64,000 nucleotides of DNA from Owenweeksia sp. (lineage in GTDB: Bacteria; Bacteroidota; Bacteroidia; Flavobacteriales; Schleiferiaceae). The stretch lies in the NCBI GenBank assembly GCA_028277105.1, contig JANQHO010000017.1, forward strand, positions 1 through 64,000. Direction: 5' to 3'. Below, piece after piece: positions 8,207 to 47,306 of this stretch; position 1 is the first letter of the stretch, and each line of letters begins with the position of its first letter. The translations under genes were made by a program, and so were the position numbers. The notes beneath the pieces are model-generated. The model did not search any database and was not told the DNA's origin. It saw nothing but the letters and a program-made list of their open reading frames with translations.

Positions 8207-8281
8207 GGGCGATTAGCTCAGCTGGTTCAGAGCACCTGCCTTACAAGCAGGGGGTCACTGGTTCGAATCCAGTATCGCCCA
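8207..8281 (+). tRNA. tRNA-Val (anticodon TAC)
   Basis: Cloverleaf read by hand: acceptor GGGCGAT/ATCGCCC, D-arm GCTC..GAGC, anticodon stem CCTGC/GCAGG with loop CTTACAA, T-arm ACTGG TTCGAAT CCAGT, discriminator A. CCA is not encoded. Confidence 0.85.
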
Positions 8282-8292
8282 CAAAAGAAATC

Positions 8293-8324
8293 AACCCGGC
8301 TCACAGATGTGAGCCGGGTTTTTT
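8293..8324 (+). terminator. Rho-independent terminator after tRNA-Val and the cargo-PorP-OmpA operon
   Basis: Hairpin acccggctcac-agat-gtgagccgggt followed by a T-run. Confidence 0.7.
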
Positions 8325-8464: not shown

Positions 8465-8618
8465 CTGAAAACCAAAAGATTAAAGCCGAGAAATTTTCTC
8501 GGCTTTAATTTTTTATATCTGCATTACAAAGTAATCTATAGGACTGTGAGTCTCCCAGTGGACAAGTTTATTACCACACCACCACAATAAATCTGGTACA
8601 GAAGGTTAGAATAACAAT

Positions 8619-13565: not shown

Positions 13566-16500
13566 TTAGTCGTCAAGCCCCTTTTCCAACACTTCTTTAA
13601 TACCGGCCAGGTTTTCGCTGAAGATCATCATTTGATTAAGGATCTGTCCCATTTCATTTTTGGCACCCAAAGCTTTGAGTTTGTTATTTTTCCGGAATAT
13701 CTGTTTAATGCTCTCCCAGCGCTCTAACTCTTCCTTACTCAAAGTGTCAGTCAGCTCCTTGTACTTTAAGAGGTTGGCCTCAGCGGCCGAAGTAAGGGTT
13801 TGGGATTCACTTTCGTAGTGAGCGAGGAGCAGGGTTTGCAATTCCTCGTCATTCATCACTGGCACTACTTTGGCTACCAGTTTGTTCATATCCCGGTAAG
13901 ACCCCTGCAGCTTAAAAGCAGGTTCGGTGCGGTAGCTGTCTTCCATAGCAGCCGAATCGATGTAGGTGGCATTCACCTTCAATACGGTATCCCTGATCGC
14001 CATCACCTTTTTCAACACCGACAAATAATCCTGTATCTCCTGGCTGGTGTGGTTTCCCTTAAACAGAACTCCCTCTTCGTTGCCAGTTTCGGCTATCTGG
14101 ATAAAACTGTATACGTCCTCAAAATACTTACTGCTGAGCTGGTTTAGTACAGAGTTAGAGGTAAGGGCATTTTCCATCAGGCTAAGTTTAAAGAGGGTAG
14201 CGGTATTGCCAATGATGTCACCTAGGTTGTAGATGTCGGCCCGGTTGGCCAGCATATCGGGGATCTGAAATTTTTCACCGCTTTCGGTATAGGGGTTTCC
14301 GGCCATAACAACACAGAATTTATTCCTGCGCAGATCATAAGTTTTAGCCTGGCCATTGTACACGCCTTCTATTCTACGGGTGCCATCGGCCAGGGAGATG
14401 AATTTTTGCAGGAACTCTGGGTTGCAATGCTGGATATCGTCCAGGTACAGCATTACATTGTTGCCCATTTCAAAGGCCAGGTTGAGTTTTTTCAACTCTT
14501 CGCGGGCTGCGGCATTGTTAGCCGACATGGGATCTATCGAAGTTACATCGTATCCTATGGCTGGGCCGTTAACCTTTACAAAAACCAGGCTCAGGCGGTT
14601 GGCGATGTATTCCATCAGGGTGGTTTTACCGTAGCCGGGCGGGGAAACTAGCAAGAGCATTCCCATGCGATCGGTACGCTTTTTATCGCCCAAGGCCCCG
14701 ATCTGTTTAGCGAGGTTATCGCCAAAAAAAGGCAGGTACACCTGATCGATCAGTTTATTCCGTACAAAAGAAGAGAGCACACGGGGCTGGTAATCTTCCA
14801 GTTTGAGTTCCAGTTTAAGTTCTTCTATCACCTGGTGTTTGGCCTTTTGGTATTCTTTGTAGGCGGGTACTTCCTGCTCGTAATAACTTTGCAGTTGATG
14901 TATGAACTCGTGGTAATCAAAGACAAATTTTCCTTCTTTTACAGTAGGGTGTTCTCCTTTAATTCCTCTGATGATCTCGTAGGGTGAAATATGGTGGAGC
15001 CTGGAAACGGACTCATCTTTAAAGAGTTCCAGGCAAACCACTTCATCTGCATAGGCCAGTAAATTCGGTTTTGTATTTTTTATGAAAGAGGTGGTCCATT
15101 GCCGTATCAACTGTATCCTTGAACTGTACTTTTCTATATCCTGATAACCCGACCTGAATTTCTGGGCCGCCTGTTTTTTTTCCAGTTCATGCACAAATTC
15201 ATCGTAACATTCCCGGGCTAAAATGCTTATCTCAAATTCGTTATTTTGTTTGAGCTCGTTAAACAGGTATTGAGCAATAGAGTGAGCAGGCTCAGGGGCG
15301 AAGAGCTGGCTGATTCTCGCAAAAGCGGCAATTTTTTCCGCCAGCACTTCGAGGGTGTAATCGTATTCGGTAGATTGGGGGAAGATCTCCAATACGGCCC
15401 CTGAGGCTTTGATAGCTTGGTTGAGGTCGATTCTTTCCGCTTCCGGCAAAGAATACCAGAAATACTGGGCCCATGCCCTGAGACCGGGGCGGTAACGCAA
15501 TAAGCCCAATTCGTGGTGTTTGGTAACCAGGGTCTTTAATATTTTGAGAGCGTCCAGGTCGTGTACACCTTTAATATAACCCGCGGAATAGCTTTCGCTG
15601 ATCTCTGCTTTTACCATGGCCGCCAACTCATCTTCTGATGTATTGTATAGTTCCGGAGAACTGTTTTGGGCAAATATCTTATAAGCCAGGTAGGAGGCGC
15701 GGTAGATCTGAGAGTTTTCCGAAACCAGTTCCTGGTTCCAGAAGCGTTGGGATTGATTCAAGATTTCATTCTCAATGGAATGGTATAGGTTGGTTCCCGT
15801 AAGGTGGTACTGTAATTGGTCGTCCTTGTATACGATAGTGAGATCTATGGGTTGTTTGTTAACCGCAAACTTGTGGTTTCCCAATTTGATGATATTATCA
15901 CCATCCTCAAATAGCTCAATAGTGTCTTTCAGTTTGCGCAAAGTATCTTCCCGTACCACTTTCAGTTTGGTCTCCAGCATTTCGGCTTTGCCAACATCAT
16001 CCAGGGATTTGAGTTGCTCTACGATATCTCTGAGCTTATTGATCATCAGGTCGGAGGCAAAATAGCCATTGATAGCTTCCGGGCTTTTAAAGGAAAGGGC
16101 CTTTTTTTCGACCCCTTTGAGAATACGTTCCGAGGCATTTTGGAGAGCTAAGGCCTTTTTATTGCGGGCCTCGACCAGGAAATTCTTTTTCATTTCAAAG
16201 CTGCCATACACTTCTTCACGCTTTTCAACGATCTGGGTGATGAACTCTTCGAAATTGGCAAAACGGCCCTCCAAATCTTCCAATTGAAGGGATATTTTAT
16301 TGAGATATTCATCACATTTTTCAGGGGTGTCCGCTAGGTCGAGGTAGTTGGTTACGCTTTGGTTTACCAGTTTTAACTGAGCGGTAAATTCAGCTTTGGC
16401 CTCTTTGCTGCCCAGCGTTTTGATCTTGTTTTTTATGCTGGCCTTGAGCTGATTGAGGGTAGCGAAGATGAGGGAAATATTGTCGATGATCTCGGTGGTG

Positions 16501-18467
16501 TGCGAAGTGTCTTCAATGTTGAGGTTGGACACAATATCGATGAGCATTTCCAGGTCAACGCCTATTTGGGCGACCTCTTCTTCCAATTTTTTGATCTCTA
16601 CAACTTTTTCAAGGCCTACTATAGCCCCTTGTTTTTCCTCTATGCGCAAGTGATAGGGAGCCAGGGCTTTTTTATCCAGCAAAAAGGTAGCGCAGCGACT
16701 GGAGATCTTTTCGGTTTGTTCAGAAACAGAGTCCTCCAGTTCAGATATGTAACCCACATCGATGTAGCGGATGTCCTTTAAGCTGATAGCTTCGCCCCGC
16801 AACGAGCGCAGTTGGGAGAGGGCATAGACAAAATCATCGATATTCCGGAAGGAAGTGGCTTTTATCTTACCCAATAAGACATCTGCTTTTTCCTGGAGGT
16901 TGTCGATGGCATTACGGGCAACCTTCCTCAGGGCTACCACCTTTTCAAATTCGTCTATGGCAGCATCTGCAGCCGCTTTGATCTCTTTTACCGGTTCGGC
17001 CAGGACAAAGGTTTCCTTTTGTGATATCCAATAGTAACTGTCTACAATGTCTTTGGCCAGTTTGGAAATATCGGCATACAGGTCGGCATAGCTATCTTCC
17101 TTGTTTAAGAGGGTAATAAGAGCATGGCATTCGGCCGTAGCCTTTACAATGTCTTTATTGCCAATTTTATAGAGCAGCGAATCACTATGCTGGGAAGGGA
17201 TGTAATTCCCTTTCATAAAGGGTGTTTGCCAGATTTGCACTAAATGGTGTTTAGTCTGCTCATTTTCATTGCGGAAGTAACACAACTCTCCATTTTGTAG
17301 GCGGGTAAAGCCATTGCAAATAATGGGAGTCATAATTTCCTGATCGATTACGTTATAATGGATCAGGAGATAGGTGCCGCGGTGTGCCCCATAAAAAACA
17401 TAAAGAAAATCTTCGCCATTGGGCGAGGATATTTTTTGCTGGAACTTAATATCCCTGAGATCATTATCTATAATCTTATATTCTCCCGTTTGCAGATAGT
17501 AACCATTCGGGAAAATAATCCCTTGATCGTCAGGTAGCATGACAACAGTATCTTTTATGCTGTCAATCTTTTTAACTTCCTGTGCCTTGTGATTGTAAAC
17601 AAAGTAGCGGGCTTTCTCATGAAAAGGTTTGATCTCAAGGATAATAAGATTGCCCAAATCCGCAAAACGATACTGACCATCATCCAAAGTCTGGTCTCTG
17701 TGCTCTACCTCTTCGATGTAAATCCCCTGGCCATCATCTGTATTGTCTTCAATCTTAATAGTAAGGTCGCCACCAATAGTTTCTACAAAAACTTTATCTA
17801 AAATAGAAATATGGGGGTGTGGTCCATAGCGGTGCATATCACGATTAACTTCCTGCCAGTTAAACTCATGTTGTATAGGGAAGCGGTACTCATGCTCACT
17901 CCTATTGTCTACGTAATGAAGTTTTTCATCTTTAATCAGCCATTTAAAAGTTTTAATGTCATTGTGGATCTCACTGAGTTGAAATACCATGTGGAGGTAA
18001 TTTCCCACTAAGGCAAATTTGGAAAAGATGGTATGCCTGTAATACTTATAAAGGTTGGAGAAATCGGTCAGAAAGGTATCATCCTGTATGAGGTCTAAGC
18101 CCACCTCCTGAAAGTGCTCATCCTTGTAGCGGTAAATACTGAATACATCAGATAAAGTAACTTCTGTACGAAGGCCAAAGTGAACGTTATAGCCAAAAAT
18201 GGAAAGCTCACCAATAGTTACTATATCACGGGCAATACAATTATTATCGGTATTGATACGGTCATTGGCAATCAATTTGGTTTCAATAGCGCCAAAAACT
18301 TTTTTACGCTCCCCGTTTAGTTGGTCCAGGCGGTTGAGCAGCGATTCTTTGTGGGATTGTAGTCGATTTTTGATAATCTCATACGTCCCACCACTCAACT
18401 GGTGTTGCTCTTTATTTTCTTTTTCCTGCATAGAATAATTTAGAAGATGTTGAAAAGGAAACCCCAT
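13566..18467 (-). CDS. Giant (1633 aa) cytoplasmic protein. N-terminal approx 450-aa mixed domain, long alpha-helical/coiled-coil middle, one C-terminal MoxR/dynein-like (AAA_5-type) AAA+ ATPase module, and a 230-aa helical tail.
   Basis: Walker A LLLVSPPGYGKTTLMEY (encoded approx 14619-14660). Walker B VMLYLDDIQH. Sensor/Arg region VVMAGNPYTESGEKFQIPDMLANRADIYNL resembles the MoxR ATQNP..LPEA..DRF block. No second P-loop and no TM helices. Last gene of a tight operon. Confidence 0.75.
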   Translation of the reverse strand: MGFPFQHLLNYSMQEKENKEQHQLSGGTYEIIKNRLQSHKESLLNRLDQLNGERKKVFGAIETKLIANDRINTDNNCIARDIVTIGELSIFGYNVHFGLRTEVTLSDVFSIYRYKDEHFQEVGLDLIQDDTFLTDFSNLYKYYRHTIFSKFALVGNYLHMVFQLSEIHNDIKTFKWLIKDEKLHYVDNRSEHEYRFPIQHEFNWQEVNRDMHRYGPHPHISILDKVFVETIGGDLTIKIEDNTDDGQGIYIEEVEHRDQTLDDGQYRFADLGNLIILEIKPFHEKARYFVYNHKAQEVKKIDSIKDTVVMLPDDQGIIFPNGYYLQTGEYKIIDNDLRDIKFQQKISSPNGEDFLYVFYGAHRGTYLLIHYNVIDQEIMTPIICNGFTRLQNGELCYFRNENEQTKHHLVQIWQTPFMKGNYIPSQHSDSLLYKIGNKDIVKATAECHALITLLNKEDSYADLYADISKLAKDIVDSYYWISQKETFVLAEPVKEIKAAADAAIDEFEKVVALRKVARNAIDNLQEKADVLLGKIKATSFRNIDDFVYALSQLRSLRGEAISLKDIRYIDVGYISELEDSVSEQTEKISSRCATFLLDKKALAPYHLRIEEKQGAIVGLEKVVEIKKLEEEVAQIGVDLEMLIDIVSNLNIEDTSHTTEIIDNISLIFATLNQLKASIKNKIKTLGSKEAKAEFTAQLKLVNQSVTNYLDLADTPEKCDEYLNKISLQLEDLEGRFANFEEFITQIVEKREEVYGSFEMKKNFLVEARNKKALALQNASERILKGVEKKALSFKSPEAINGYFASDLMINKLRDIVEQLKSLDDVGKAEMLETKLKVVREDTLRKLKDTIELFEDGDNIIKLGNHKFAVNKQPIDLTIVYKDDQLQYHLTGTNLYHSIENEILNQSQRFWNQELVSENSQIYRASYLAYKIFAQNSSPELYNTSEDELAAMVKAEISESYSAGYIKGVHDLDALKILKTLVTKHHELGLLRYRPGLRAWAQYFWYSLPEAERIDLNQAIKASGAVLEIFPQSTEYDYTLEVLAEKIAAFARISQLFAPEPAHSIAQYLFNELKQNNEFEISILARECYDEFVHELEKKQAAQKFRSGYQDIEKYSSRIQLIRQWTTSFIKNTKPNLLAYADEVVCLELFKDESVSRLHHISPYEIIRGIKGEHPTVKEGKFVFDYHEFIHQLQSYYEQEVPAYKEYQKAKHQVIEELKLELKLEDYQPRVLSSFVRNKLIDQVYLPFFGDNLAKQIGALGDKKRTDRMGMLLLVSPPGYGKTTLMEYIANRLSLVFVKVNGPAIGYDVTSIDPMSANNAAAREELKKLNLAFEMGNNVMLYLDDIQHCNPEFLQKFISLADGTRRIEGVYNGQAKTYDLRRNKFCVVMAGNPYTESGEKFQIPDMLANRADIYNLGDIIGNTATLFKLSLMENALTSNSVLNQLSSKYFEDVYSFIQIAETGNEEGVLFKGNHTSQEIQDYLSVLKKVMAIRDTVLKVNATYIDSAAMEDSYRTEPAFKLQGSYRDMNKLVAKVVPVMNDEELQTLLLAHYESESQTLTSAAEANLLKYKELTDTLSKEELERWESIKQIFRKNNKLKALGAKNEMGQILNQMMIFSENLAGIKEVLEKGLDD

Positions 18468-18492
18468 ATTTCAGGGGCTTGCCATCAATGGA

Positions 18493-20550
18493 TCATCCTA
18501 TTTTTTTGTCTGATAAACCTAAGGCCTTGGCTAGGTTGGATAAGTTCAGGAAGTTATTTCTTTCGTCAGCATTGGAAGCTTTGTCCTGTAATTCCAGTAG
18601 AATGTTGGCAATCGTCAGGTTTCTGATATTTTCTGAGGAGATACCATATTTCTCAGCAAACTCTTTGATCTTATCTAAAAGGTTGCCTTTTACATCATCA
18701 TTTCCTAAAATAGCGTCTTTTACATCCTGTATGCTGTTGCTATGGTCAACCAGGCGATCTATGCCCTTGGCTTTAGTGATCTGACCGATGATATTTTCAA
18801 AGAACATGGTTTCACCCCCTACAATATCAATGTTAGCGGATTTCAAGGCTTCACCTATTACCAGAGCCTGGGCGTTGGCAATATCTTTTTGAATGGTGAT
18901 ACCGGCCAGTTCAATTTCTTTCTCTTTATCCAGGCGTAGCTTGAATTCTTCGTGGTCTTTACCTACCCCATCGAGTTTCTTCATAGCCTCAGCTTTTTCT
19001 TCTATACCTGCTGCATCAGCCAGGGATTTTTCCTTGATCACTTCAGCTTCAGCTAATCCTTCTTTCTTAATGGCATCAGCTTTAGCTTCTATACCAGAAG
19101 CTTCAGCTTTGGCTTTCTTTTCTATTATTAAAGCCTCAACTACCCCTTTTCGCTCTTCGGCATCTGCTTTAGCATGCATAACCTGTGCTTCAGATAAACC
19201 AATCGTTGCTTCTTCCTTGGCTTGAGCTTCAGCCAAAGTCTTACGGGCTTCAGCTTCTTTTTCACTCGCTTCTTTATGGGCTTGAGCTTCAATATTAATT
19301 TCTTCTGCTTTTTGCTTGGCAGCTTCTTTCTCAGCTTCTGCTGCTTTTATACGCTTAATCAAGGATTCTTGAGCGTCAGCTTCAGCTTTGGTTATGGTCA
19401 CTTGTTTATCACGGTCGGCTGTCTTAAAAGCCTCAATGTCCTTCATGTTTTCCTGTTCTTCCACCACGCCTTTTTCCAGCATTACACGATCCCTGATAAC
19501 ATCTTGAATGTTCTTCTTTTCAACTTCTACTACTTTGTCTTTCTCAATAGTGGCTAGCGACACAACTCTTTCTCTTTCGGTAGCCTCCAGCAAACGGTCT
19601 TTTTCAACGCGTTCTGTTTCCACCGCATCCGTTCTTTGCTTGTTCTTTGCTGCAATGATTACCTGCCTTTCTTTATTCTCTTCTGCAACTTTTACTTTTT
19701 CCTCTGTTTGGATACGGGCAGATTCTGATTTCAGACGTTCTTCTTCATTTACCTTTTGGATTTCTGCTTCTTCGCGGGCTTTGATGTTGGCAATTTCTCT
19801 TTTTTGCTGTTCTTCTTTTTCAGCTAATTGCTTGTCCAGCTCTAATATAGCTTCGCGGGCTTCAACATCTTGTTTTCTGATGACCTTTTCCTCATCACGT
19901 TTAATCAGATTGGCCTTTATATTTTGAGCAGTAGTGAGTTCCGTGATCTTTTTGATACCCTCTGCATCAAGAATATTATCCGGCTTTAAGAAAGAGATGG
20001 GGGTTTGCTCCAAAAAGTCAATGGCACAATCGTCAAGGACATAACCGTTGAGGTCTGTTCCTATGATATTGATGATCTCATCCCTGAATTCCCTACGGGC
20101 TTCGTATAAAGCACTGAATTCGAATTTTTTACCTACGGTTTTTAAGGCTTCAGAAAATTTAGCTTCAAAAAGGTCTTCTAAAGTTTTAAAATCTGAAGCC
20201 CTGGAAACACCTATAGTCTGGGCTACATTGATAATATCGTCTTTGGATTTATTGACCCTTACAAAAAAGGCTACTTTAATGTCAGCTCTCATATTGTCTC
20301 TGCAAATGAGGCCATCATCACCGAGCCTTTCAATCTGAATTTTTTTTACGGAGATGTCCATAATCTCCAGTCTGTGAACAACGGGTACAACGTATAACCC
20401 TTTGTCGAAGGCAACTGCGGCACCTCCAAAACCTGTTCTTACCAATGCTTTGCCCTGTGGGATTTTTCTATAAAAAGCGGCAATGATAATCACCAGGGCA
20501 AGGAGGGTGATTACGATAACGCCAATAACGGTTAGTGCAATAGTGCTCAT
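18493..20550 (-). CDS. Flotillin-family SPFH/band-7 protein (YqiK/FloT-like) with a long EA-rich coiled-coil C-terminal region
   Basis: N-terminal TM, then SPFH core ...VRTGFGGAAVAFDKGLYVVPVVHRLEIMDISVKKIQIERLGDDGLICRDNMRADIKVAFFVRV..., then AEAEAK-type repeats typical of flotillins. Confidence 0.85.
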   Translation of the reverse strand: MSTIALTVIGVIVITLLALVIIIAAFYRKIPQGKALVRTGFGGAAVAFDKGLYVVPVVHRLEIMDISVKKIQIERLGDDGLICRDNMRADIKVAFFVRVNKSKDDIINVAQTIGVSRASDFKTLEDLFEAKFSEALKTVGKKFEFSALYEARREFRDEIINIIGTDLNGYVLDDCAIDFLEQTPISFLKPDNILDAEGIKKITELTTAQNIKANLIKRDEEKVIRKQDVEAREAILELDKQLAEKEEQQKREIANIKAREEAEIQKVNEEERLKSESARIQTEEKVKVAEENKERQVIIAAKNKQRTDAVETERVEKDRLLEATERERVVSLATIEKDKVVEVEKKNIQDVIRDRVMLEKGVVEEQENMKDIEAFKTADRDKQVTITKAEADAQESLIKRIKAAEAEKEAAKQKAEEINIEAQAHKEASEKEAEARKTLAEAQAKEEATIGLSEAQVMHAKADAEERKGVVEALIIEKKAKAEASGIEAKADAIKKEGLAEAEVIKEKSLADAAGIEEKAEAMKKLDGVGKDHEEFKLRLDKEKEIELAGITIQKDIANAQALVIGEALKSANIDIVGGETMFFENIIGQITKAKGIDRLVDHSNSIQDVKDAILGNDDVKGNLLDKIKEFAEKYGISSENIRNLTIANILLELQDKASNADERNNFLNLSNLAKALGLSDKKIG

Positions 20551-20556
20551 GATTGT

Positions 20557-21264
20557 TTATGAATAGTTAGTATAGGGTTGAACGTAGTAGTATTTTTTAT
20601 CTGAGGATTGCTTGATCACCAGTATTTGTTCCCCTGAATTTATGAGGGAACCATCCAGTGATTTGGCGTAAAACTTTATGGGGCTATCCAGTACTTTAAC
20701 TTCAACGGTGCCAATTCGTTCCCCTTCCAGTTGAGAGAGGCTTATACCTGCTCTGCCAAGTAGGTCAATGGATTGATCGCCCTTGCTGTTGAACTTTTTA
20801 AACAGCCGTTTAAAAGGGCTGGTCACCATCTTATTGATATACAGGGCGGGAATCATGGCACCAAAGAAAAAGAGGAAGCCAATATTGTTGTCATAAGTTC
20901 CGGTAAGGTAGGTACCTGTTACCGTAATGGTCCACCAGATCAACACCCAAAAGGTGAAAGTGAACATGAGTGGCAGGCCTACAAAATTGAAGTAGATGAG
21001 AAAGATCTGAAACCAATTGAGCTTACCTTTTTTTCTTACAGCCTGGTCTTTAGCTTCAGCATTAGTGATGTCTTCAAAATCTACTGACTCTGAAGAGCCT
21101 AAGTCAGCTTCAGCACCCACATCAATGTCTACATCAATATCCGTATCTATATTGGTATCCAAACCTGTAATGATGGCAAATATCCAGTAGATTACAACCA
21201 GCAGTAGTAGTATGCTAAGCCCAATATTGACTTCGGAGAAAAAAACTTCCTTAATAAAGTCCAA
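20557..21264 (-). CDS. YqiJ/NfeD-like membrane protein (TM helices plus C-terminal OB-fold), the usual flotillin partner
   Basis: Several TM segments, an acidic D/I/D/V-rich loop, and a C-terminal ...GTVEVKVLDSPIKFYAKSLDGSLINSGEQILVIKQ... beta-rich NfeD-like domain. 6-bp gap to the flotillin gene. Confidence 0.6.
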   Translation of the reverse strand: MDFIKEVFFSEVNIGLSILLLLVVIYWIFAIITGLDTNIDTDIDVDIDVGAEADLGSSESVDFEDITNAEAKDQAVRKKGKLNWFQIFLIYFNFVGLPLMFTFTFWVLIWWTITVTGTYLTGTYDNNIGFLFFFGAMIPALYINKMVTSPFKRLFKKFNSKGDQSIDLLGRAGISLSQLEGERIGTVEVKVLDSPIKFYAKSLDGSLINSGEQILVIKQSSDKKYYYVQPYTNYS

Positions 21265-21266
21265 TA

Positions 21267-21998
21267 TTACTCCTCTTTAGATGGGTTGGTACCGTCTTCA
21301 CTTAAACCCAACTGCGCTTTTAGTTTTTCCAGGTCATCTTCGGCATTAGCTTCTGAAGTGTCCACAATCTTATTCAACTCATCGTCAATAGATTTGGACT
21401 CATTGGCCATATTGCCGTAGGCATCAGCTAAAGCTTCATCCTGAGCCACTTTGTCTTTCATGCGCTCAAGCATAGAAACGGTGCTGCTGCTATCTATTTC
21501 TGCCATTTGTTTGTTCAGGTTTTTGGTGGCTTTGCTCACCTTAACGCGGGCAGTTAGGGTTTTGAGTTCATTTTCCCATTTACTGATATTGGACTTAATG
21601 GTCTGGATAGTAGTGTTTAACTGATTAGCAGACTCCTCAAATTTTTGAGCTTCTTTTTGAAGTCTCTCCACCTGCTTAAGGCTTTCTTCCTTTTTGACTA
21701 AAGCTTCCTTGGCTAAGCGATCTGCTTCGGCAATATCCAGTTCTCCTCTACTTGCTTTTTTAAGGATAAGAACGGCTTTGTTTTTATAATCTTCAGCTTT
21801 AGATTGGGATTCTTCCATATCGTTTTTGGCACGTATGGCAAGAGCCTTAACCTGGGCTAAGGCTTCCATGCTTTTGGCCAGATCTTCTTTCATGTCCCTT
21901 ATACCTTGCTGGGTTAGTTTAATAGGGTCTTCCATTTTATCCACAGCAGCGTGAGCTTCAGCTTGTCCTATTTTAAAAAGTCTTTTGAAAATATTCAT
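21267..21998 (-). CDS. PspA/IM30/Vipp1-family (ESCRT-III-like) protein
   Basis: MNIFKRLFKIGQAEAHAAVDKMEDPIKLTQQGIRDMKEDLAKSMEALAQVKA... is the canonical PspA_IM30 N-terminus. All-helical coiled coil, 243 aa. Confidence 0.8.
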   Translation of the reverse strand: MNIFKRLFKIGQAEAHAAVDKMEDPIKLTQQGIRDMKEDLAKSMEALAQVKALAIRAKNDMEESQSKAEDYKNKAVLILKKASRGELDIAEADRLAKEALVKKEESLKQVERLQKEAQKFEESANQLNTTIQTIKSNISKWENELKTLTARVKVSKATKNLNKQMAEIDSSSTVSMLERMKDKVAQDEALADAYGNMANESKSIDDELNKIVDTSEANAEDDLEKLKAQLGLSEDGTNPSKEE

Positions 21999-22002
21999 AG
22001 TA

Positions 22003-22398
22003 TTAATTTTTAGAAAATTTTATGATTTGATCCGAGTATTCGCTTAGTAATAAACTCAAGGAGTTTAAGGAAGCTTCCAGTTCGTTAAGGTCGAGGTTCT
22101 CCAATTGTAAAGTGTCTCTGAAGATCACCTTATCACCAGTTTCATTCAGTACAAAAGCTCCATGAATAATGTCCCGGTTTTTTTGAAGCAGGCTTTTGAA
22201 AATCTCCAGTGAAGGAAAGTTTACCGTAAAGATGAATTGTTCGATAATTAGGATAGGGTAGGCTACACCTATGATCAAATTCTTAATTCCGGCCGACTCT
22301 TTTTGAATAACCATAACCCCATTCAATTCATCTTCCAGCGTAATCAAAAATTCGAGTTCCTGAATGTATTCTTTAGTCTTTTGATACTGGTCTTTCAT
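22003..22398 (-). CDS. Small cytoplasmic protein, first gene of the PspA operon (possibly YbjN/YjfI(DUF2170)-like PspA partner)
   Basis: 131 aa, no TM. 4-bp gap to pspA-like gene. The YbjN/DUF2170 call rests on weak sequence resemblance plus gene context; it is not a homology hit. Confidence 0.35.
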   Translation of the reverse strand: MKDQYQKTKEYIQELEFLITLEDELNGVMVIQKESAGIKNLIIGVAYPILIIEQFIFTVNFPSLEIFKSLLQKNRDIIHGAFVLNETGDKVIFRDTLQLENLDLNELEASLNSLSLLLSEYSDQIIKFSKN

Positions 22399-22441
22399 TG
22401 GCGTGTTTGTTTAAGTTAGAGATAATTAAGGGTCAACTTTA

Positions 22442-22461
22442 AGATGTTTTGTAAAACATCT
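22442..22461. promoter_or_regulatory. Perfect palindrome agatgtttt-gt-aaaacatct in the divergent promoter region between the PspA operon and the XRE regulator gene. Candidate operator.
   Basis: 9-bp inverted arms with a 2-bp spacer, seen directly. Located 44 bp upstream of the first operon gene and 188 bp upstream of the XRE gene. Confidence 0.4.
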
Positions 22462-22648
22462 ATGATGATTGCTAAAGTTATTAGAATAATATTTGCCGGC
22501 CACCATCTCAACATTAATATTCTTTTTCTTTTTGAGAAAAGAAATCGGATAGACACCTACCTAAGCTAAAATTATTAACTACTTTAGCTAATAAGAATGG
22601 GGTAAAGATAAGATTTTTTAACCAAATTGCAAATAAAATTAGCATTCT

Positions 22649-23413
22649 ATGACTTTTTTTGGGAAGAATATCAAAAAGATCAGAGGGGTAAAGAGATTGA
22701 GCCAGCAGGCTTTTGCTGATCTATTCGACTTAAAAAGAGGCACTTTGGGAGCCTACGAGGAGGGGAGAAGTGAACCTAAACTGGAAACTATTATCCGGAT
22801 TGCTAATTATTTTAGTGTTTCGATCGATAGCTTGCTAACGCATGAGCTTACGGTAAACCAGTTACTGCAATTTAAAGGTGATATTGCAGCTGCTATTGAT
22901 GAAAACCAGCTTAAAGAGTTTACCCAAATACCTTGCCTTACGGTTGACAAAATAAGTGAGTACTGCAAAAATTTTACGGATAAGGGGCTTATTGAAACCC
23001 TGCCCAAACTTCAGCTACCGGTGATGAGCAAAAGGAAATTGCGGGGCTATATCATCCATAATTTAGAGATGGCCCAAAACGAAAGTGGGCTCTATCCTAA
23101 AGATGTGGTTATAGGGGAAGCCATACCTAAAATAAGGATCAGTGATCTGGAGGAGGGAACACTGAGTATGTTGTTATTGGAAGAAGATTTTTTGATACGC
23201 AGAATATTTATTAACGACAATAAAATAGTCCTCAAAGCTGACCATGAGAGTGTACCTGACAAAGAGATCAACCCAAAAGAATTGAAAGAATTATGGGTAG
23301 TAAAGTACATTTTTAACCATAGGCTTCCTTACCGTACAAATTCGCTGGAAGAAAGGGTCAGAGTATTAGAACAGGAGTTTACGAAGTTAAAATCGTCACT
23401 TGGTGATAAGTAG
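22649..23413 (+). CDS. XRE-family (Cro/C1-type HTH) transcriptional regulator with a C-terminal domain of unknown function
   Basis: ...IKKIRGVKRLSQQAFADLFDLKRGTLGAYEEGRSEPKLETIIRIANYFSVSIDSLL... is the HTH_3 signature. Divergent from the PspA-flotillin operon. Confidence 0.75.
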   Translation: MTFFGKNIKKIRGVKRLSQQAFADLFDLKRGTLGAYEEGRSEPKLETIIRIANYFSVSIDSLLTHELTVNQLLQFKGDIAAAIDENQLKEFTQIPCLTVDKISEYCKNFTDKGLIETLPKLQLPVMSKRKLRGYIIHNLEMAQNESGLYPKDVVIGEAIPKIRISDLEEGTLSMLLLEEDFLIRRIFINDNKIVLKADHESVPDKEINPKELKELWVVKYIFNHRLPYRTNSLEERVRVLEQEFTKLKSSLGDK

Positions 23414-23430
23414 TAATTTATTAGCAGATT

Positions 23431-24126
23431 TTATAACCCCAGGTATTTCTGAAGCTCAGCTTTATAAGCCTCACTAACGGGAATGTAATGTTTACCGATC
23501 ACGATGCGATTTCGTTCTACGGTGGTAAGGTGCTGCAGACTAACGATGTAGGAGCGGTGTACTTTCATAAAGGCGTTTCGAGGCATTTTTTCCTCTAGTG
23601 ACTTTAAGCTCATCAAAGTCATAATAGCGCGGCCATCACTGAGGTAGATCTTTACGTAATCCTTTTGGTTTTCTATGAAAAGTATGTCCTTCCAGACGAT
23701 CTTGATCAATTTGTAGTCTGCTTTTACAAAAAAGTAATCTTCATTTTTCCGGTATGGCGCGTCCTTTTTCAAGGAAAAGTATTCTTTGGCCTTGGTGGCT
23801 GAGTTTAGAAAATCTTCAAAGCTGAAAGGTTTCAGTAAATAGTCCAGGGCATGAACCTTATAGCTTTCCAGAGCATACTGCTCGTAAGCGGTAGTAAATA
23901 TTACCCGGGTTTGTTCCGGCAGCAAACGAGAAAGATTCATTCCGCTTAAGTCGGGCATATTTATGTCCATAAAAACCAGGTCTACTGGTTTTTCATGCAG
24001 GGATTCCAGGGCCTTTAATGAGCTGTAGTAAACTCCTTGTAGTTCCAGAAAGGAAACTTTTCCAATGTATTCCTTTACCAGTTCAATAGCCGGTGGCTCG
24101 TCATCTATGGCTATACATTTTATCAT
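23431..24126 (-). CDS. LytTR-family two-component response regulator
   Basis: REC domain MIKCIAIDDEPPAIE...D plus a C-terminal LytTR DNA-binding domain. Confidence 0.85.
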   Translation of the reverse strand: MIKCIAIDDEPPAIELVKEYIGKVSFLELQGVYYSSLKALESLHEKPVDLVFMDINMPDLSGMNLSRLLPEQTRVIFTTAYEQYALESYKVHALDYLLKPFSFEDFLNSATKAKEYFSLKKDAPYRKNEDYFFVKADYKLIKIVWKDILFIENQKDYVKIYLSDGRAIMTLMSLKSLEEKMPRNAFMKVHRSYIVSLQHLTTVERNRIVIGKHYIPVSEAYKAELQKYLGL

Positions 24127-25189
24127 CCCGGGGCAATATCAGGTTTACGGTAAATTTCGAATCTTTTTGTTGAATGTCAAGCCGGTAATTCTGTTTAGGA
24201 TATAACAGTTCCAACCTTTTGCGGATATTGGTCAAGCCTATACCCCCCGTTTCTCCGGTATTGCTTTTTTTGTGAATGCTGTTGCTGATATCAAAATAAA
24301 TGCCCGATTGATCGGAAGTCAGTGAAATACTCAGGCTGGAAGGCTGCTCGTAGCTCACTCCGTGTTTAAAGGCATTTTCTATAAAGGGTATAAAGATCAA
24401 GGGAGGTACTTCGAGGTGGTCTTCCAGTTGATCTACTTTAAGATCAACGGCTACATCTTCTGCCAGGCGCAGCTTCATCAGTTTGATGTAATCTTCCAAA
24501 AAAGCTACCTCTTTGCCGATGGGGATAGTTTGCTTATCGGTTTCGTACAGCATATACCGCATGAGCTTGGATAGCTGATGAATGGTTTGCCGGGCCTTAT
24601 CGGGATTGGAACCCACAAAAGAGTAAATGTTATTCAGGGTATTAAAGAAAAAATGCGGGTTGATCTGGTTTTTGAGAAAGGCCAGTTCGGCCGTGAGCTT
24701 CTCCTTTTCCATTTCTTCCTTGTCTTTATCCTGTTTCAGAGCCCGGCTCACTGCGGTAAAAATCAAGCCAAAGGCAAAGGTCAAAATAGTTGACATGACC
24801 ACAAACAGATGCTGAGGATCGGGTCTTTGGCCTTCTTTTAAGAAGCGGTTATCCAGCTCGGCAAGGGGTTGAGGCCTTTTCCATTTTTCTATGTGAAAAT
24901 ACTCATCGAATGAGATGTTAATGAGATAGATAAGGACAAAACAAGTCAGTACCGCCAGCAGGTACCACCATACCTTTTTCCTGAACAAGAGTTGAGGTAT
25001 CAGCAAAAGGGTATTGATGTAGTAAAAAATAACGATCAATGTGAGATGACCGGCTATGCGATAGTATATGTCGTTGGGAAGTACCGATAAATTGACCGGC
25101 CCTGCAAATAGCAAAAGGGAGAACAGCCCTGACCATACAATGAGGTGTAAAAGAACTTTCCAGAAAATATGATTAGGGTCAAATTTCAT
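24101..25189 (-). CDS. Membrane sensor histidine kinase, LytS/YehU type (His_kinase PF06580-like plus HATPase_c)
   Basis: Multi-TM N-terminus. ...LKNQINPHFFFNTLNNIYSF... signature. G-box GGIGLTNIRKRLEL. Confidence 0.8.
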   Translation of the reverse strand: MKFDPNHIFWKVLLHLIVWSGLFSLLLFAGPVNLSVLPNDIYYRIAGHLTLIVIFYYINTLLLIPQLLFRKKVWWYLLAVLTCFVLIYLINISFDEYFHIEKWKRPQPLAELDNRFLKEGQRPDPQHLFVVMSTILTFAFGLIFTAVSRALKQDKDKEEMEKEKLTAELAFLKNQINPHFFFNTLNNIYSFVGSNPDKARQTIHQLSKLMRYMLYETDKQTIPIGKEVAFLEDYIKLMKLRLAEDVAVDLKVDQLEDHLEVPPLIFIPFIENAFKHGVSYEQPSSLSISLTSDQSGIYFDISNSIHKKSNTGETGGIGLTNIRKRLELLYPKQNYRLDIQQKDSKFTVNLILPRDDKMYSHR

Positions 25190-37829: not shown

Positions 37830-37852
37830 AAACAGGTAGTACTACCTGTTTT
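37830..37852. repeat. 23-bp palindromic element aaacaggtag-ta-ctacctgtttt, copy 1, upstream of the TetR-efflux operon
   Basis: Identical to copy 2 at 44467-44489. Arms here extend to 13 bp (ataaaacaggtag/ctacctgttttat). Confidence 0.7.
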
Positions 37853-44466: not shown

Positions 44467-44489
44467 GAAACAGGTAGTACTACCTGTTT
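44467..44489. repeat. 23-bp palindromic element aaacaggtag-ta-ctacctgtttt, copy 2, downstream of the TetR-efflux operon
   Basis: Identical to 37830-37852. Confidence 0.7.
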
Positions 44490-44597
44490 TTAATAATGGG
44501 GTAATAGTGCGGATAAACAGACAGCGTGGGCTTTTCACTTTTGAAGTGTAAAAATCAACCAATTAAGGCGGATGCCGAAAAGCCTTCAAGAGAGTAG

Positions 44598-46046
44598 GTG
44601 ATCAAACCCAAATGTTTAAAAATGTCAAACAGTAAAAACACACAAGTAAGCGAAAAAGAAGGAGTAATTTTCCTATTGTCATGGTTATCCAATGTAAATG
44701 CAGGAATAGCCGGAAAACTAAGTGATCTGACGGATCATGCCACTACTTACATTAATGAAGCTCTAGGCGATTCTACTATACAGTCAGCTTTAAAAGATGT
44801 GAGCAATGATCCCCAATCAGCAGTTGTTTGGGGCCCGGTTTCTTTTACAGAAACTGATCTCGACTCTGATTCTGTGACAGATAACCTTATGTATGTTTTT
44901 AGGGGAATCCAACCAGGCGATAGCTCTAAACGGCTTTATGTTGTGGCAGTGGCTGGTACCAATCCCGATTCTTATTACGGCTGGTATAGTGAAGACCTTC
45001 AGCCTGGAACTATGTTAAACTGGCCAGTGGTAAGTGACCCCTGTCAGGGTGACAACCCGTTAATTGATCCCTCTAAGAACCCTGCTAAAGAAGGTGAACC
45101 TGCGGTAGCCCTGGGTTTTTCGGTAGGTTTGGATAAGCTGTGGAATCATATGTCTTTTCAGGGGGATTGTATCTTAACTTTCCTGAACAACGAAATGACC
45201 AGCGATGCCAATGAAGATTTTACGGATATTGAAATAGCGGTGGCAGGGCATAGCTTAGGAGGTGCATTGGCACCTATGCTGGCATTAGCCCTGCAAGAGA
45301 AAATGGATGCCAATGGTAAAAATCTGACTATTTCAACCTGGCCTACTGCAGGTCCTACTCCCGGTGAATCGAATTTTGCCAGCTATTTACCCAAGCAGCT
45401 AGGTACCGATAACTACAATGCAGCTTTTAACGATAACGATATTGTTCCCCATGCCTTTGAAATGGACATGATGCAACAGCTTTGCAATATTTACAATGAT
45501 CTGAATATCACTACTTGCAATGGCTCGGTTACAGGAATTCAGGCTAATGATCTGGCTAAAGGTATCCTCTGTTATGCCAGAAGCTTACCCGGTAGCTATG
45601 ATTATGAAAGAAGTGATAAAGATTCCACTTTTACCGATCCGGGAGTAAATTTTACCGATACTAATCCCATTACACAAAATGCTTATGTGAGTTGTGTGAA
45701 ATTAACAGAAGGAGCAGGAATTATTTATGAACTGTGTCAACAGAATTTCACTACTATTTTAAATGCCGTTAATCCTAGCGATAGTCTTAACATCCTTACA
45801 GTGTTTAACCTGCTTACTTATATGGCAGAAGCGGGTTACCAGCATACTGATGCTTATACCATGCATTATTTGGGCGAAGAGCTATTTGCAGCGGTACATC
45901 AATATGTGGGTATTGATTCAGCCAGTATTTTGGATAAACTTTTAAGCAGCGGTACGGATGAAATTATCAACTTTACTCAACTGGTACAAAATGCAGCTGA
46001 TTTTTACAACAACGGTGGTACGTATTCCGATTGTAGTAACTCCTGA
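44598..46046 (+). CDS. Class-3 (fungal-type) lipase-like alpha/beta hydrolase
   Basis: ...VAGHSLGGALAPMLAL... is the GHSLG nucleophile elbow typical of Lipase_3. Confidence 0.65.
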   Translation: MIKPKCLKMSNSKNTQVSEKEGVIFLLSWLSNVNAGIAGKLSDLTDHATTYINEALGDSTIQSALKDVSNDPQSAVVWGPVSFTETDLDSDSVTDNLMYVFRGIQPGDSSKRLYVVAVAGTNPDSYYGWYSEDLQPGTMLNWPVVSDPCQGDNPLIDPSKNPAKEGEPAVALGFSVGLDKLWNHMSFQGDCILTFLNNEMTSDANEDFTDIEIAVAGHSLGGALAPMLALALQEKMDANGKNLTISTWPTAGPTPGESNFASYLPKQLGTDNYNAAFNDNDIVPHAFEMDMMQQLCNIYNDLNITTCNGSVTGIQANDLAKGILCYARSLPGSYDYERSDKDSTFTDPGVNFTDTNPITQNAYVSCVKLTEGAGIIYELCQQNFTTILNAVNPSDSLNILTVFNLLTYMAEAGYQHTDAYTMHYLGEELFAAVHQYVGIDSASILDKLLSSGTDEIINFTQLVQNAADFYNNGGTYSDCSNS

Positions 46047-46072
46047 ATCGGTCTAATAATCATACATAAAAA

Positions 46073-46098
46073 ACCCTTGCTGAGGCAAGGGTTTTTTT
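46073..46098 (+). terminator. Rho-independent terminator (acccttgc-tgag-gcaagggt followed by a T-run) after the lipase gene
   Basis: Stem-loop plus T-run seen directly. Confidence 0.75.
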
Positions 46099-47275: not shown

Positions 47276-47306
47276 AAGCCCTTATCTTTTATAAGGGCTT
47301 TTTTGT
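47276..47306 (+). terminator. Rho-independent terminator (aagcccttat-ctttt-ataagggctt followed by a T-run)
   Basis: 10-bp perfect stem plus TTTTTT. Confidence 0.75.

Follow-up and report, generated by a model that had tools for sequence, protein, structure and literature searches.

A regulator with a predicted, catalytically inactive LexA-like fold and conserved candidate operators beside a divergent CesT-PspA operon of Bacteroidota

We have analyzed a stretch of 64,000 nucleotides from Owenweeksia sp. (Bacteroidota, Flavobacteriales, Schleiferiaceae; contig JANQHO010000017.1 of assembly GCA_028277105.1, positions 1 to 64,000), hereafter the window, and within it the gene for a regulator of the XRE helix-turn-helix (HTH) family that is transcribed divergently from an operon containing the gene of PspA, a protein of the phage shock protein (PSP) systems. 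Between the two lies a spacer of 250 bp (22399-22648) with a perfect 9-2-9 palindrome, which a first-pass annotation of this DNA had read as the operator of the HTH dimer. What is conserved among orthologous spacers is another element, a dyad with the core GCTAA-N5-TTAGC, found in several copies at fixed positions around the start of the regulator gene. The regulator is probably a non-cleavable dimeric repressor of the lambda CI/LexA type, which would control the operon and its own gene through these dyads and not through the palindrome. Its C-terminal domain has the predicted fold of the S24 peptidases and lacks their catalytic residues, and the protein should be filed as an S24-fold pseudopeptidase repressor rather than as a LexA-type autopeptidase.

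The spacers of 80 genome loci (L001-L080), taken with the alignment of the regulator family, were compared together with that of the window, giving 81 spacers in all. In an unbiased count of all k-N-k dyads the top-ranked one was CTAA-N5-TTAG, present in 78/81 spacers, followed by TTGC-N11-GCAA in 68/81. Combined they form a 7-5-7 dyad, TTGCTAA-N5-TTAGCAA, whose half-sites are one helical turn apart. There are three to four copies per spacer and one more inside the regulator gene, with centres at -13, -54, -86, -147 and +160 from the regulator ATG. Matches with at most two mismatches reach a density of 5.1 per kb in the spacers, compared to 0.076 per kb in 1.27 Mb of flanking sequence (a 67-fold difference), and 80 of the 97 matches outside the spacers are the single intragenic site. 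Within the 64 kb of the window there were only two such matches, boxes D and A in the list below, both of them in the spacer. The promoter region of the regulator contains conserved, locus-specific sites with dyad symmetry, the copies of which are the following.

22627..22645: box A, TTGCAAATAAAATTAGCAT, the best-conserved copy, two mismatches in the window, centre 13 bp upstream of the regulator ATG; the consensus TTGCAAATAAAATTAGCAA is found at the same position (centre -13) in 79/80 loci with at most two mismatches.
22563..22591: boxes B and C, overlapping degenerate dyads, GCTAAAATTATTAAC (22565-22579) and TTATTAACTACTTTAGCTA (22572-22590); box B has the consensus TAGCTAATATTGTTAGTGT, centre -54, and is conserved in 78/80 loci; box C is degenerate, centre -86, and conserved in 70/80.
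22469..22487: box D, TTGCTAAAGTTATTAGAAT, the dyad nearest to the operon, two mismatches; its equivalent in Aquimarina-type loci is TTGCTAAAAATTTTAGTAA at -147.
22800..22818: intragenic dyad, TTGCTAATTATTTTAGTGT, within the HTH-coding part of the regulator gene itself (codons I51-I57), present at +160 in 80/80 loci.

A second dyad pointed out by the first-pass annotation, the one containing TTAGCTAA, proved to be real (arms of 10 nt at 22572-22581 and 22585-22594, 90% complementary) and to belong to this conserved, operator-like set. The TTAGCTAA motif itself (22584-22591) falls within the region of boxes B and C, and is found at -64/-65 in 61/81 spacers.

The intragenic copy has frozen synonymous sites: A52 is GCT in 80/80 loci, F55 is TTT in 80/80, and S56 is AGC in 76 and AGT in four. 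Among the 50 conserved codons with synonymous choices in aa 1-77, A52 and F55 are the only invariant ones and the other 47 (besides S56) vary. Unlike S56, the other conserved Ser codons of the regulator favour AGT, and third positions inside the N5 spacer of the dyad do vary. The frozen sites point to DNA-level selection for GCTAA-N5-TTAGC.

Further evidence came from a distant subfamily of the regulator (35-40% identity, ca. 30 metagenome loci), in which a dyad resembling box A is still present immediately before the ATG, with half-sites that vary. Three loci (L083, L084 and L105, with ...LARPSVGAYEEGR... in the HTH) have GCTCA-N5-TGAGC, and L093 (HTH ...LNRGSV...) has GCCAA-N5-TTGGC; we also found hybrids of the type GCTCA-N5-TTAGC, and the standard GCTAA or a GCAAA form together with K/T-R-G/A-S/T. 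The symmetric variants of the half-sites track changes at HTH residues 29-33. As far as can be judged from sequence, changes that keep the symmetry of a site and follow the recognition region are what a site for a dimeric protein predicts.

The protein that would bind these sites has the following organization.

22649..23413, + strand: regulator gene (open reading frame, HTH_3), 254 aa, with an XRE/Cro-CI HTH, a linker, a predicted inactive S24 (LexA/CI-like) domain and a C-terminal helix.
22670..22831, + strand: HTH_3 DNA-binding domain, aa 8-61 (Pfam).
22916..23314, + strand: S24 (LexA/lambda CI) fold domain, aa ca. 90-222, predicted from AlphaFold2, Foldseek and mapping of the paralogue columns.
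23066-23068, + strand: E140, in the place of the Ser nucleophile.
23198-23200, + strand: R184, in the place of the Lys base.
23345..23398, + strand: C-terminal helix, aa 233-250, an AlphaFold2 helix with low-to-moderate predicted local distance difference test (pLDDT) values; its E-x-R/K...LE pattern is kept across the family.

The first-pass annotation was right about the divergent XRE-family gene. The protein scored 42.4 bits with HTH_3 (PF01381; E 7e-11), over the gathering cut-off of 23, which places it among the XRE/Cro-CI regulators, and its sequence matches in the PDB are XRE/Cro-type HTH proteins. The C-terminal ca. 170 aa, which had been left as an uncharacterised region and possible sensor, contain instead a domain with a predicted LexA/CI fold, catalytically dead, and the terminal helix. 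Sequence-only searches reached just the HTH: phmmer and hmmsearch against the PDB returned HTH matches only, with LexA at E ~0.9, and hhalign to lambda CI aligned the HTH alone. For this reason the assignment of the C-terminal domain needed a fold search and alignments with paralogues. The AlphaFold2 model has a pLDDT of 80-90 over aa 90-222. Foldseek found 24 PDB matches at E <= 1e-3, all of them LexA or lambda CI (LexA 3k2z at 9.5e-7 and lambda CI 3bdn at 2.8e-6, and also C-terminal domains of E. coli LexA), with target-normalised TM-scores up to 0.69, so that the model supports an S24 beta-fold. The Pfam profile Peptidase_S24 (PF00717) stayed below its gathering score on the window protein (12.8 bits vs. 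a cut-off of 23.3, E 0.096); across the family it gave sub-threshold matches (E <= 1) to 23 of 24 members, the best one at 2e-6.

The catalytic residues are gone. The column of LexA S119 (the G-x-S-M motif) is occupied by E140 in the window and by E, D, A, S or H in the members linked to PSP operons, whereas it is Ser in LexA and in all members of a group of paralogues that keep both Ser and Lys (hereafter S/K paralogues); in the C-terminal domain there is no Ser that is invariant across the family. The Lys base is missing as well, with both hhalign and MAFFT placing LexA K156 on R184. The window regulator has no AG dipeptide, and neither Ala-Gly nor Cys-Gly stands at the linker site; where the S/K paralogues have SAGY, the alignment shows ISEY, SLEY or YIEY for PSP-linked members. 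When aligned with the S/K paralogues and E. coli LexA, all the PSP-linked members included had E/R and no Ala-Gly. Since Ser, Lys and Ala-Gly are all missing, RecA-type autocleavage would not be possible for a protein of this sequence.

This loss follows the genomic context. The Ser+Lys pair was found in 0/109 members adjacent to CesT/PspA, versus 43/43 of the non-adjacent members that could be tested; four further proteins without the pair were left out of this partition for having too short contigs. At the two columns the 109 adjacent members had ER (91), DR (6), EK (4), SR (4), AR (2), EG (1) and HT (1). The S/K paralogues (XRE-S24 proteins of metagenome loci L116-L162) have intact GDSM, KR and Ala-Gly (SAGY), with PF00717 above threshold. 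By sequence they (L118-L162) are the nearest relatives that the PSP-linked clade has, with the same length and the same ...GAYEEGR.EPK... N-terminal HTH. They differ in keeping GDSM, KR and SAGY and in their neighbours, an IMS polymerase or MsrB plus Metal_resist and never CesT/PspA. In our view the S/K paralogues probably represent the self-cleaving stock that gave rise to the PSP regulator, which is, by its predicted residues, a catalytically dead offshoot of a LexA-like family of Bacteroidota. The S/K paralogues showed two layouts, a three-gene unit MsrB (SelR)-regulator-Metal_resist, or the regulator followed by the IMS (Y-family polymerase) gene.

The regulator has the same divergent neighbour at other loci too. 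We found more than 1000 homologues of ca. 250 aa, mostly in Flavobacteriaceae, 49-57% identical to the window protein (the best non-self ones, 55-57%, come from Flavobacteriaceae). In 80/80 genome loci the divergent upstream neighbour of the regulator is a CesT homologue, which in ca. 71 of the 80 is followed by the full row CesT-PspA-transmembrane (TM) protein-flotillin-like protein-AAA+ in the same order. The other nine (L001, L005, L009, L010, L019, L021, L030, L039 and L059) keep only the regulator, a small open reading frame (sORF, described below) and CesT, after which unrelated genes follow (DUF2911, MarR-like, GNAT and others), with no PspA, flotillin-like or AAA+ gene. In the distant subfamily CesT-PspA is the divergent neighbour wherever the contig allows it to be seen. 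The regulator is the only DNA-binding protein conserved at the locus. This synteny strongly supports that it is dedicated to this operon, as had been proposed in the first-pass annotation, together with the view that control is not of the sigma-54/PspF kind. The latter agrees with the regulator having no AAA+ domain and with the absence of any match to a sigma-54 -24/-12 promoter (TGGCAC-N5-TTGCW, up to two mismatches) in 22399-22648.

In the window, the genes divergent from the regulator are these.

13566..22398, - strand: putative regulated operon (open reading frames, Pfam), made of the five genes below.
22003-22398, - strand: CesT_Tir_1 gene (PF22550, E 1e-54).
21267-21998, - strand: PspA_IM30 gene (PF04012, E 6e-45).
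20557-21264, - strand: gene of a 235-aa TM protein.
18493-20550, - strand: gene of a 685-aa TM/coiled-coil "flotillin-like" protein.
13566-18467, - strand: gene of a 1633-aa DUF3686-DUF7902-AAA protein (DUF3686 E 5e-179; AAA_5/AAA at aa 1271-1396).
22416..22514, - strand: sORF of 32 aa, MLRWWPANIILITLAIIIDVLQNILKLTLNYL, the counterpart of a conserved hydrophobic sORF.

A CesT/Tir-like gene followed by a PspA/IM30 gene, and a large AAA+ ATPase with an N-terminal repeat/coiled-coil region (the 1633-aa protein), place this row in the operon class CesT/Tir-PspA-band-7/flotillin-AAA+ described by Ravi et al. (2024; PMC11237479). The first-pass annotation had called it a PspA-flotillin operon. The PspA part of the name stands; the 685-aa protein, which shares 75-85% identity with the orthologues at the 80 loci, matched no Pfam profile or PDB sequence at E <= 0.01. 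Its sequence shows a hydrophobic segment at the N-terminus and a long region that is rich in E/K/A and coiled-coil-like. The flotillin label comes from the likeness of the operon layout to the one described (PMC11237479); sequence gave no confirmation of it. The order is also the published one (CesT_Tir_1, PspA, a YqiJ/YuaF-like TM protein, the TM coiled-coil flotillin-like protein and the large AAA+ protein with N-terminal repeat region); the regulator, its predicted operator and the leader sORF are additions made here. Convergent to the regulator gene (23431-25189, - strand) there are a LytTR response regulator and a His_kinase/GHKL sensor. We considered this pair as a part of the system and rejected it, given that the orthologous loci do not conserve its place beside the regulator.

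The sORF is probably the first cistron of the operon. A hydrophobic sORF (starting with ATG, at least 13 codons, 13-32 aa, within 170 nt of CesT) was found in ca. 95% of the orthologous spacers versus 37% of shuffled ones. In 41 loci it has exactly 23 codons and ends in FL*, as for example MIAVAEYIANLAVDIVEKLSHFL, and the entropies at the three codon positions of these 23-codon versions (0.92, 0.51 and 1.10) are a coding signature. It was not found in the distant PSP-linked subfamily, and it is therefore not a universal part of the system. In loci of Aquimarina, Tenacibaculum and Nonlabens a near-invariant element, ACTTTTTGTAATATTGA, lies over the sORF stop codon ca. 60 nt upstream of the CesT ATG (operon strand); it is conserved beyond coding need and contains the -7-like box TAATATTG. 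The window does not have ACTTTTTGTAATATTGA. As to the promoters, the Bacteroidota -7 consensus is TAnnTTTG (PMC9723704), and its one-mismatch matches are so common in this AT-rich spacer that they do not locate the promoters; a sigma-70 scan of the spacer was uninformative (three matches vs. 2.1 expected).

The way in which the system may work can be outlined as follows. The S24-fold domain probably keeps its role in dimerisation, as its fold suggests, and the C-terminal helix is a possible extra oligomerisation element. The regulator dimer would bind the 15-19-bp dyads at 22469-22487, 22563-22591 and 22627-22645, plus the intragenic one at 22800-22818. Since the dyads cover the back-to-back promoter region, repression of both sides would be expected, and most likely the regulator represses the sORF-CesT-PspA-TM-flotillin-like-AAA+ operon as well as its own gene. 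Two of the sites, box A and the intragenic one, would be downstream of the likely transcription start site of the regulator. Induction would take place without autocleavage. The least certain step is the signal: stress would most likely be communicated by a protein partner, not by proteolysis, a candidate being partner switching with the CesT-like chaperone, PspA or the small peptide of the sORF. Because the core of regulator, sORF and CesT persists in loci without PspA, the chaperone or the peptide would be the most economical candidate.

The active-site cleft of LexA binds the protein's own cleavage loop. A tentative extension, unlikely in our estimate, is that the dead S24 domain was repurposed as a sensor, whose former active-site cleft would bind the CesT-like chaperone, PspA or the leader peptide; partner switching would then relay membrane stress, and the intragenic and promoter boxes would allow a looped, switch-like repression. 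If true, this would be a fourth and mechanistically distinct PSP control beside PspF, LiaRS and ClgR, as well as a new use for a LexA-fold pseudoprotease.

Several observations weigh against the repressor acting at GCTAA-N5-TTAGC dyads. Operator assignment, repression and promoter positions are all predictions from conservation and location. The AlphaFold2 model is poor for the HTH, and the co-variation of operator and recognition helix comes from few independent clades. In the window itself box B is just a half-site and box C has four mismatches. Identity of the window protein to its orthologues is just 49-57%, and the databases gave no close relative of the organism, the only identical sequences being two short Logan contigs (SRR20820739 and SRR20820733), so that a lineage-specific extra operator may exist. 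Boxes B and C also overlap -7-like boxes on both strands, of which AT-rich spacers hold many with one mismatch, so that part of the conservation of B and C could be that of a promoter. Taken further, this overlap with TAnnTTTG-like boxes (consensus in PMC9723704), and the location of box A in the probable 5' untranslated region just before the ATG, would make all the GCTAA-N5-TTAGC boxes promoter or untranslated-region elements, or else sites for an unlinked factor. We regard this as very unlikely. Against it stand the dyad symmetry and the four or five copies, one of them in a coding sequence with frozen synonymous sites, the symmetric changes of half-sites in distant clades, a motif essentially confined to the locus within 1.27 Mb of flanks, and the regulator as sole DNA-binding protein conserved there. 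The sign of the regulation deserves separate consideration. Lambda CI itself activates PRM, box D is upstream of the sORF in Aquimarina-type loci, and other PSP systems use activators such as PspF, ClgR and LiaR (PMC11237479), all of which could fit a regulator that works mainly as an activator of the operon. However, the sites overlap -7-like boxes or lie downstream of the likely start site of the regulator, positions that are typical of repression, and the parent family, the LexA-like S/K paralogues, are repressors. We thus take a mainly activating role as unlikely, and keep repression at the dyads as the preferred reading.

The palindrome AGATGTTTT-gt-AAAACATCT (22442..22461) is certainly there and statistically unusual, as the first-pass annotation had noticed. 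Its pattern with up to three mismatches appears once in the 64 kb against 0.05 expected, and a perfect palindrome of this kind would be expected ca. 0.01 times per 250 bp. Perfect inverted repeats in which arms of 9 nt or more flank a spacer of 0-6 number 19 in the whole window (nested, at nine places), compared to 2.55 +/- 2.1 in Markov shuffles; the other places are mostly G+C-rich and hairpin-like. The palindrome sits in the right spacer, its 11-bp half-site spacing would suit an HTH dimer, and it abuts a one-mismatch -7-like box, TAAAGTTG, 43 nt before the CesT ATG. In spite of this, its being the operator of the divergent XRE dimer is highly improbable. The claim fails the very check proposed with it, conservation in orthologous operons: the best matches in the 80 orthologous spacers have 5-9 mismatches of 20, which is chance level, so that it is absent from all of them. 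There is no conserved inverted repeat at the position either (16/80 loci have any perfect one of at least 7 nt in the 130 nt before CesT, and these are heterogeneous), and as a conserved operator we have rejected it. Its sequence is unlike that of the conserved, enriched and co-varying dyad. A different specificity of the window regulator is unlikely, since in its HTH the identity to the orthologues reaches 84% for aa 1-75 and 95% for aa 17-44, the recognition region, compared to 31-44% for the rest of the protein. Finally, the palindrome is inside the coding sORF, where it covers codons D19-I24, GAT GTT TTA CAA AAC ATC (D-V-L-Q-N-I), which match the family core D-[IV]-x-[EQ]-[KN]-[LI]. It is lineage-specific and most likely a coincidence of coding sequence, possibly with a local RNA hairpin.

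Two other roles for the palindrome can be considered, both of them quite unlikely. One is that it acts as RNA, an 8-bp hairpin with a 4-nt loop in the sORF or leader, tuning translation of the sORF or CesT, or the stability of the messenger. The hairpin is predicted in both the minimum free energy and the centroid structures, it falls within a probably translated leader sORF, 24 nt before the stop codon, and in some orthologues a weak AAAAGT-N6-ACTTTT pairing can be seen by eye near the sORF end (the inverted-repeat scan listed one locus, L037). However, the region folds no better than shuffled sequences (z = -0.26), the spacer has no terminator, U-tract or Rfam match, and the position lacks a conserved inverted repeat. 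The other is a lineage-specific site for some other DNA-binding protein, or a promoter-proximal element of a second promoter close to CesT, in either case independent of the XRE regulator. Besides the improbability of a perfect palindrome by chance, this would fit with the strongly conserved, different element (ACTTTTTGTAATATTGA) that orthologues hold at the equivalent place, and the adjacent -7-like box would put the palindrome at about -14 to -35 of a putative promoter. Yet one-mismatch -7 boxes are common in the spacer (eight on that strand), the 64 kb contain no second copy of the motif even at three mismatches, and a candidate protein is lacking: the neighbouring LytTR regulator is not kept in synteny, and LytTR proteins usually bind direct repeats.

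Among known systems, the closest in fold are LexA, lambda CI and UmuD (MEROPS S24), the fold that Foldseek found for the regulator. With lambda CI it shares a Cro/CI HTH and several palindromic operators, here predicted, in a divergent promoter region. From the S24 repressors it departs by the Glu (E140) and Arg (R184) in place of Ser and Lys, the missing Ala-Gly and the sub-threshold PF00717 score, and from LexA and CI also by its predicted target, a membrane-stress operon and not SOS or prophage genes. PrlP of Streptococcus suis (PMC12273997) is likewise a repressor with an XRE HTH joined to an S24 fold, which answers to stresses other than DNA damage and has a small local regulon; unlike the window protein, which lacks all three elements, it self-cleaves at Ala155-Gly156 via a Ser/Lys dyad, and its DNA motif, CCTGAAWCT, is unrelated. 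ClgR is small, has no S24-fold domain and is an activator. Like the window regulator it has a Cro-like HTH and is linked to a pspA operon, but it is encoded within the M. tuberculosis psp operon (PMC11237479; compared by description only). PspF of the E. coli psp system resembles the window regulator in being dedicated, in its divergent location from the psp operon with a shared promoter region, and it is controlled by the operon product PspA (PMC11237479). PspF differs in belonging to another protein family, with the AAA+ sigma-54 activator domain and promoter type that the window regulator and its spacer lack, and probably in the opposite sign of regulation.

The way in which PspA/ESCRT-III-type systems are switched on is known for few model groups, through PspF in Proteobacteria, LiaRS in Firmicutes and ClgR in Actinobacteria. 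For the CesT-PspA-flotillin-AAA+ class, PMC11237479 gives no regulator, and its text does not contain the terms LexA or S24. The protein described here offers for these Bacteroidota operons a concrete, testable regulator and a predicted operator, with one copy written into the codons for the DNA-binding domain of the regulator itself. Its history would, moreover, make a clean evolutionary case, in which the catalytic dyad of a self-cleaving, LexA-like lineage was lost precisely in the members that joined a membrane-stress operon (0/109 vs. 43/43).

Other perfect inverted repeats elsewhere in the window, again with arms of 9 nt or more, are located at 8295-8318, 8483-8505, 46071-46094 and 47277-47299. 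All but the last of these are rich in G+C and look like hairpins or terminators; the one at 8295-8318 follows a tRNA at 8207-8281. A perfect 18-bp palindrome, ACAGGTAGTACTACCTGT (extended AAACAGGTAGTACTACCTGTTT), is found twice, 6.6 kb apart (37832-37849 and 44470-44487), the second copy being ca. 80 bp upstream of a match to the DUF805b RNA motif at 44565-44600.

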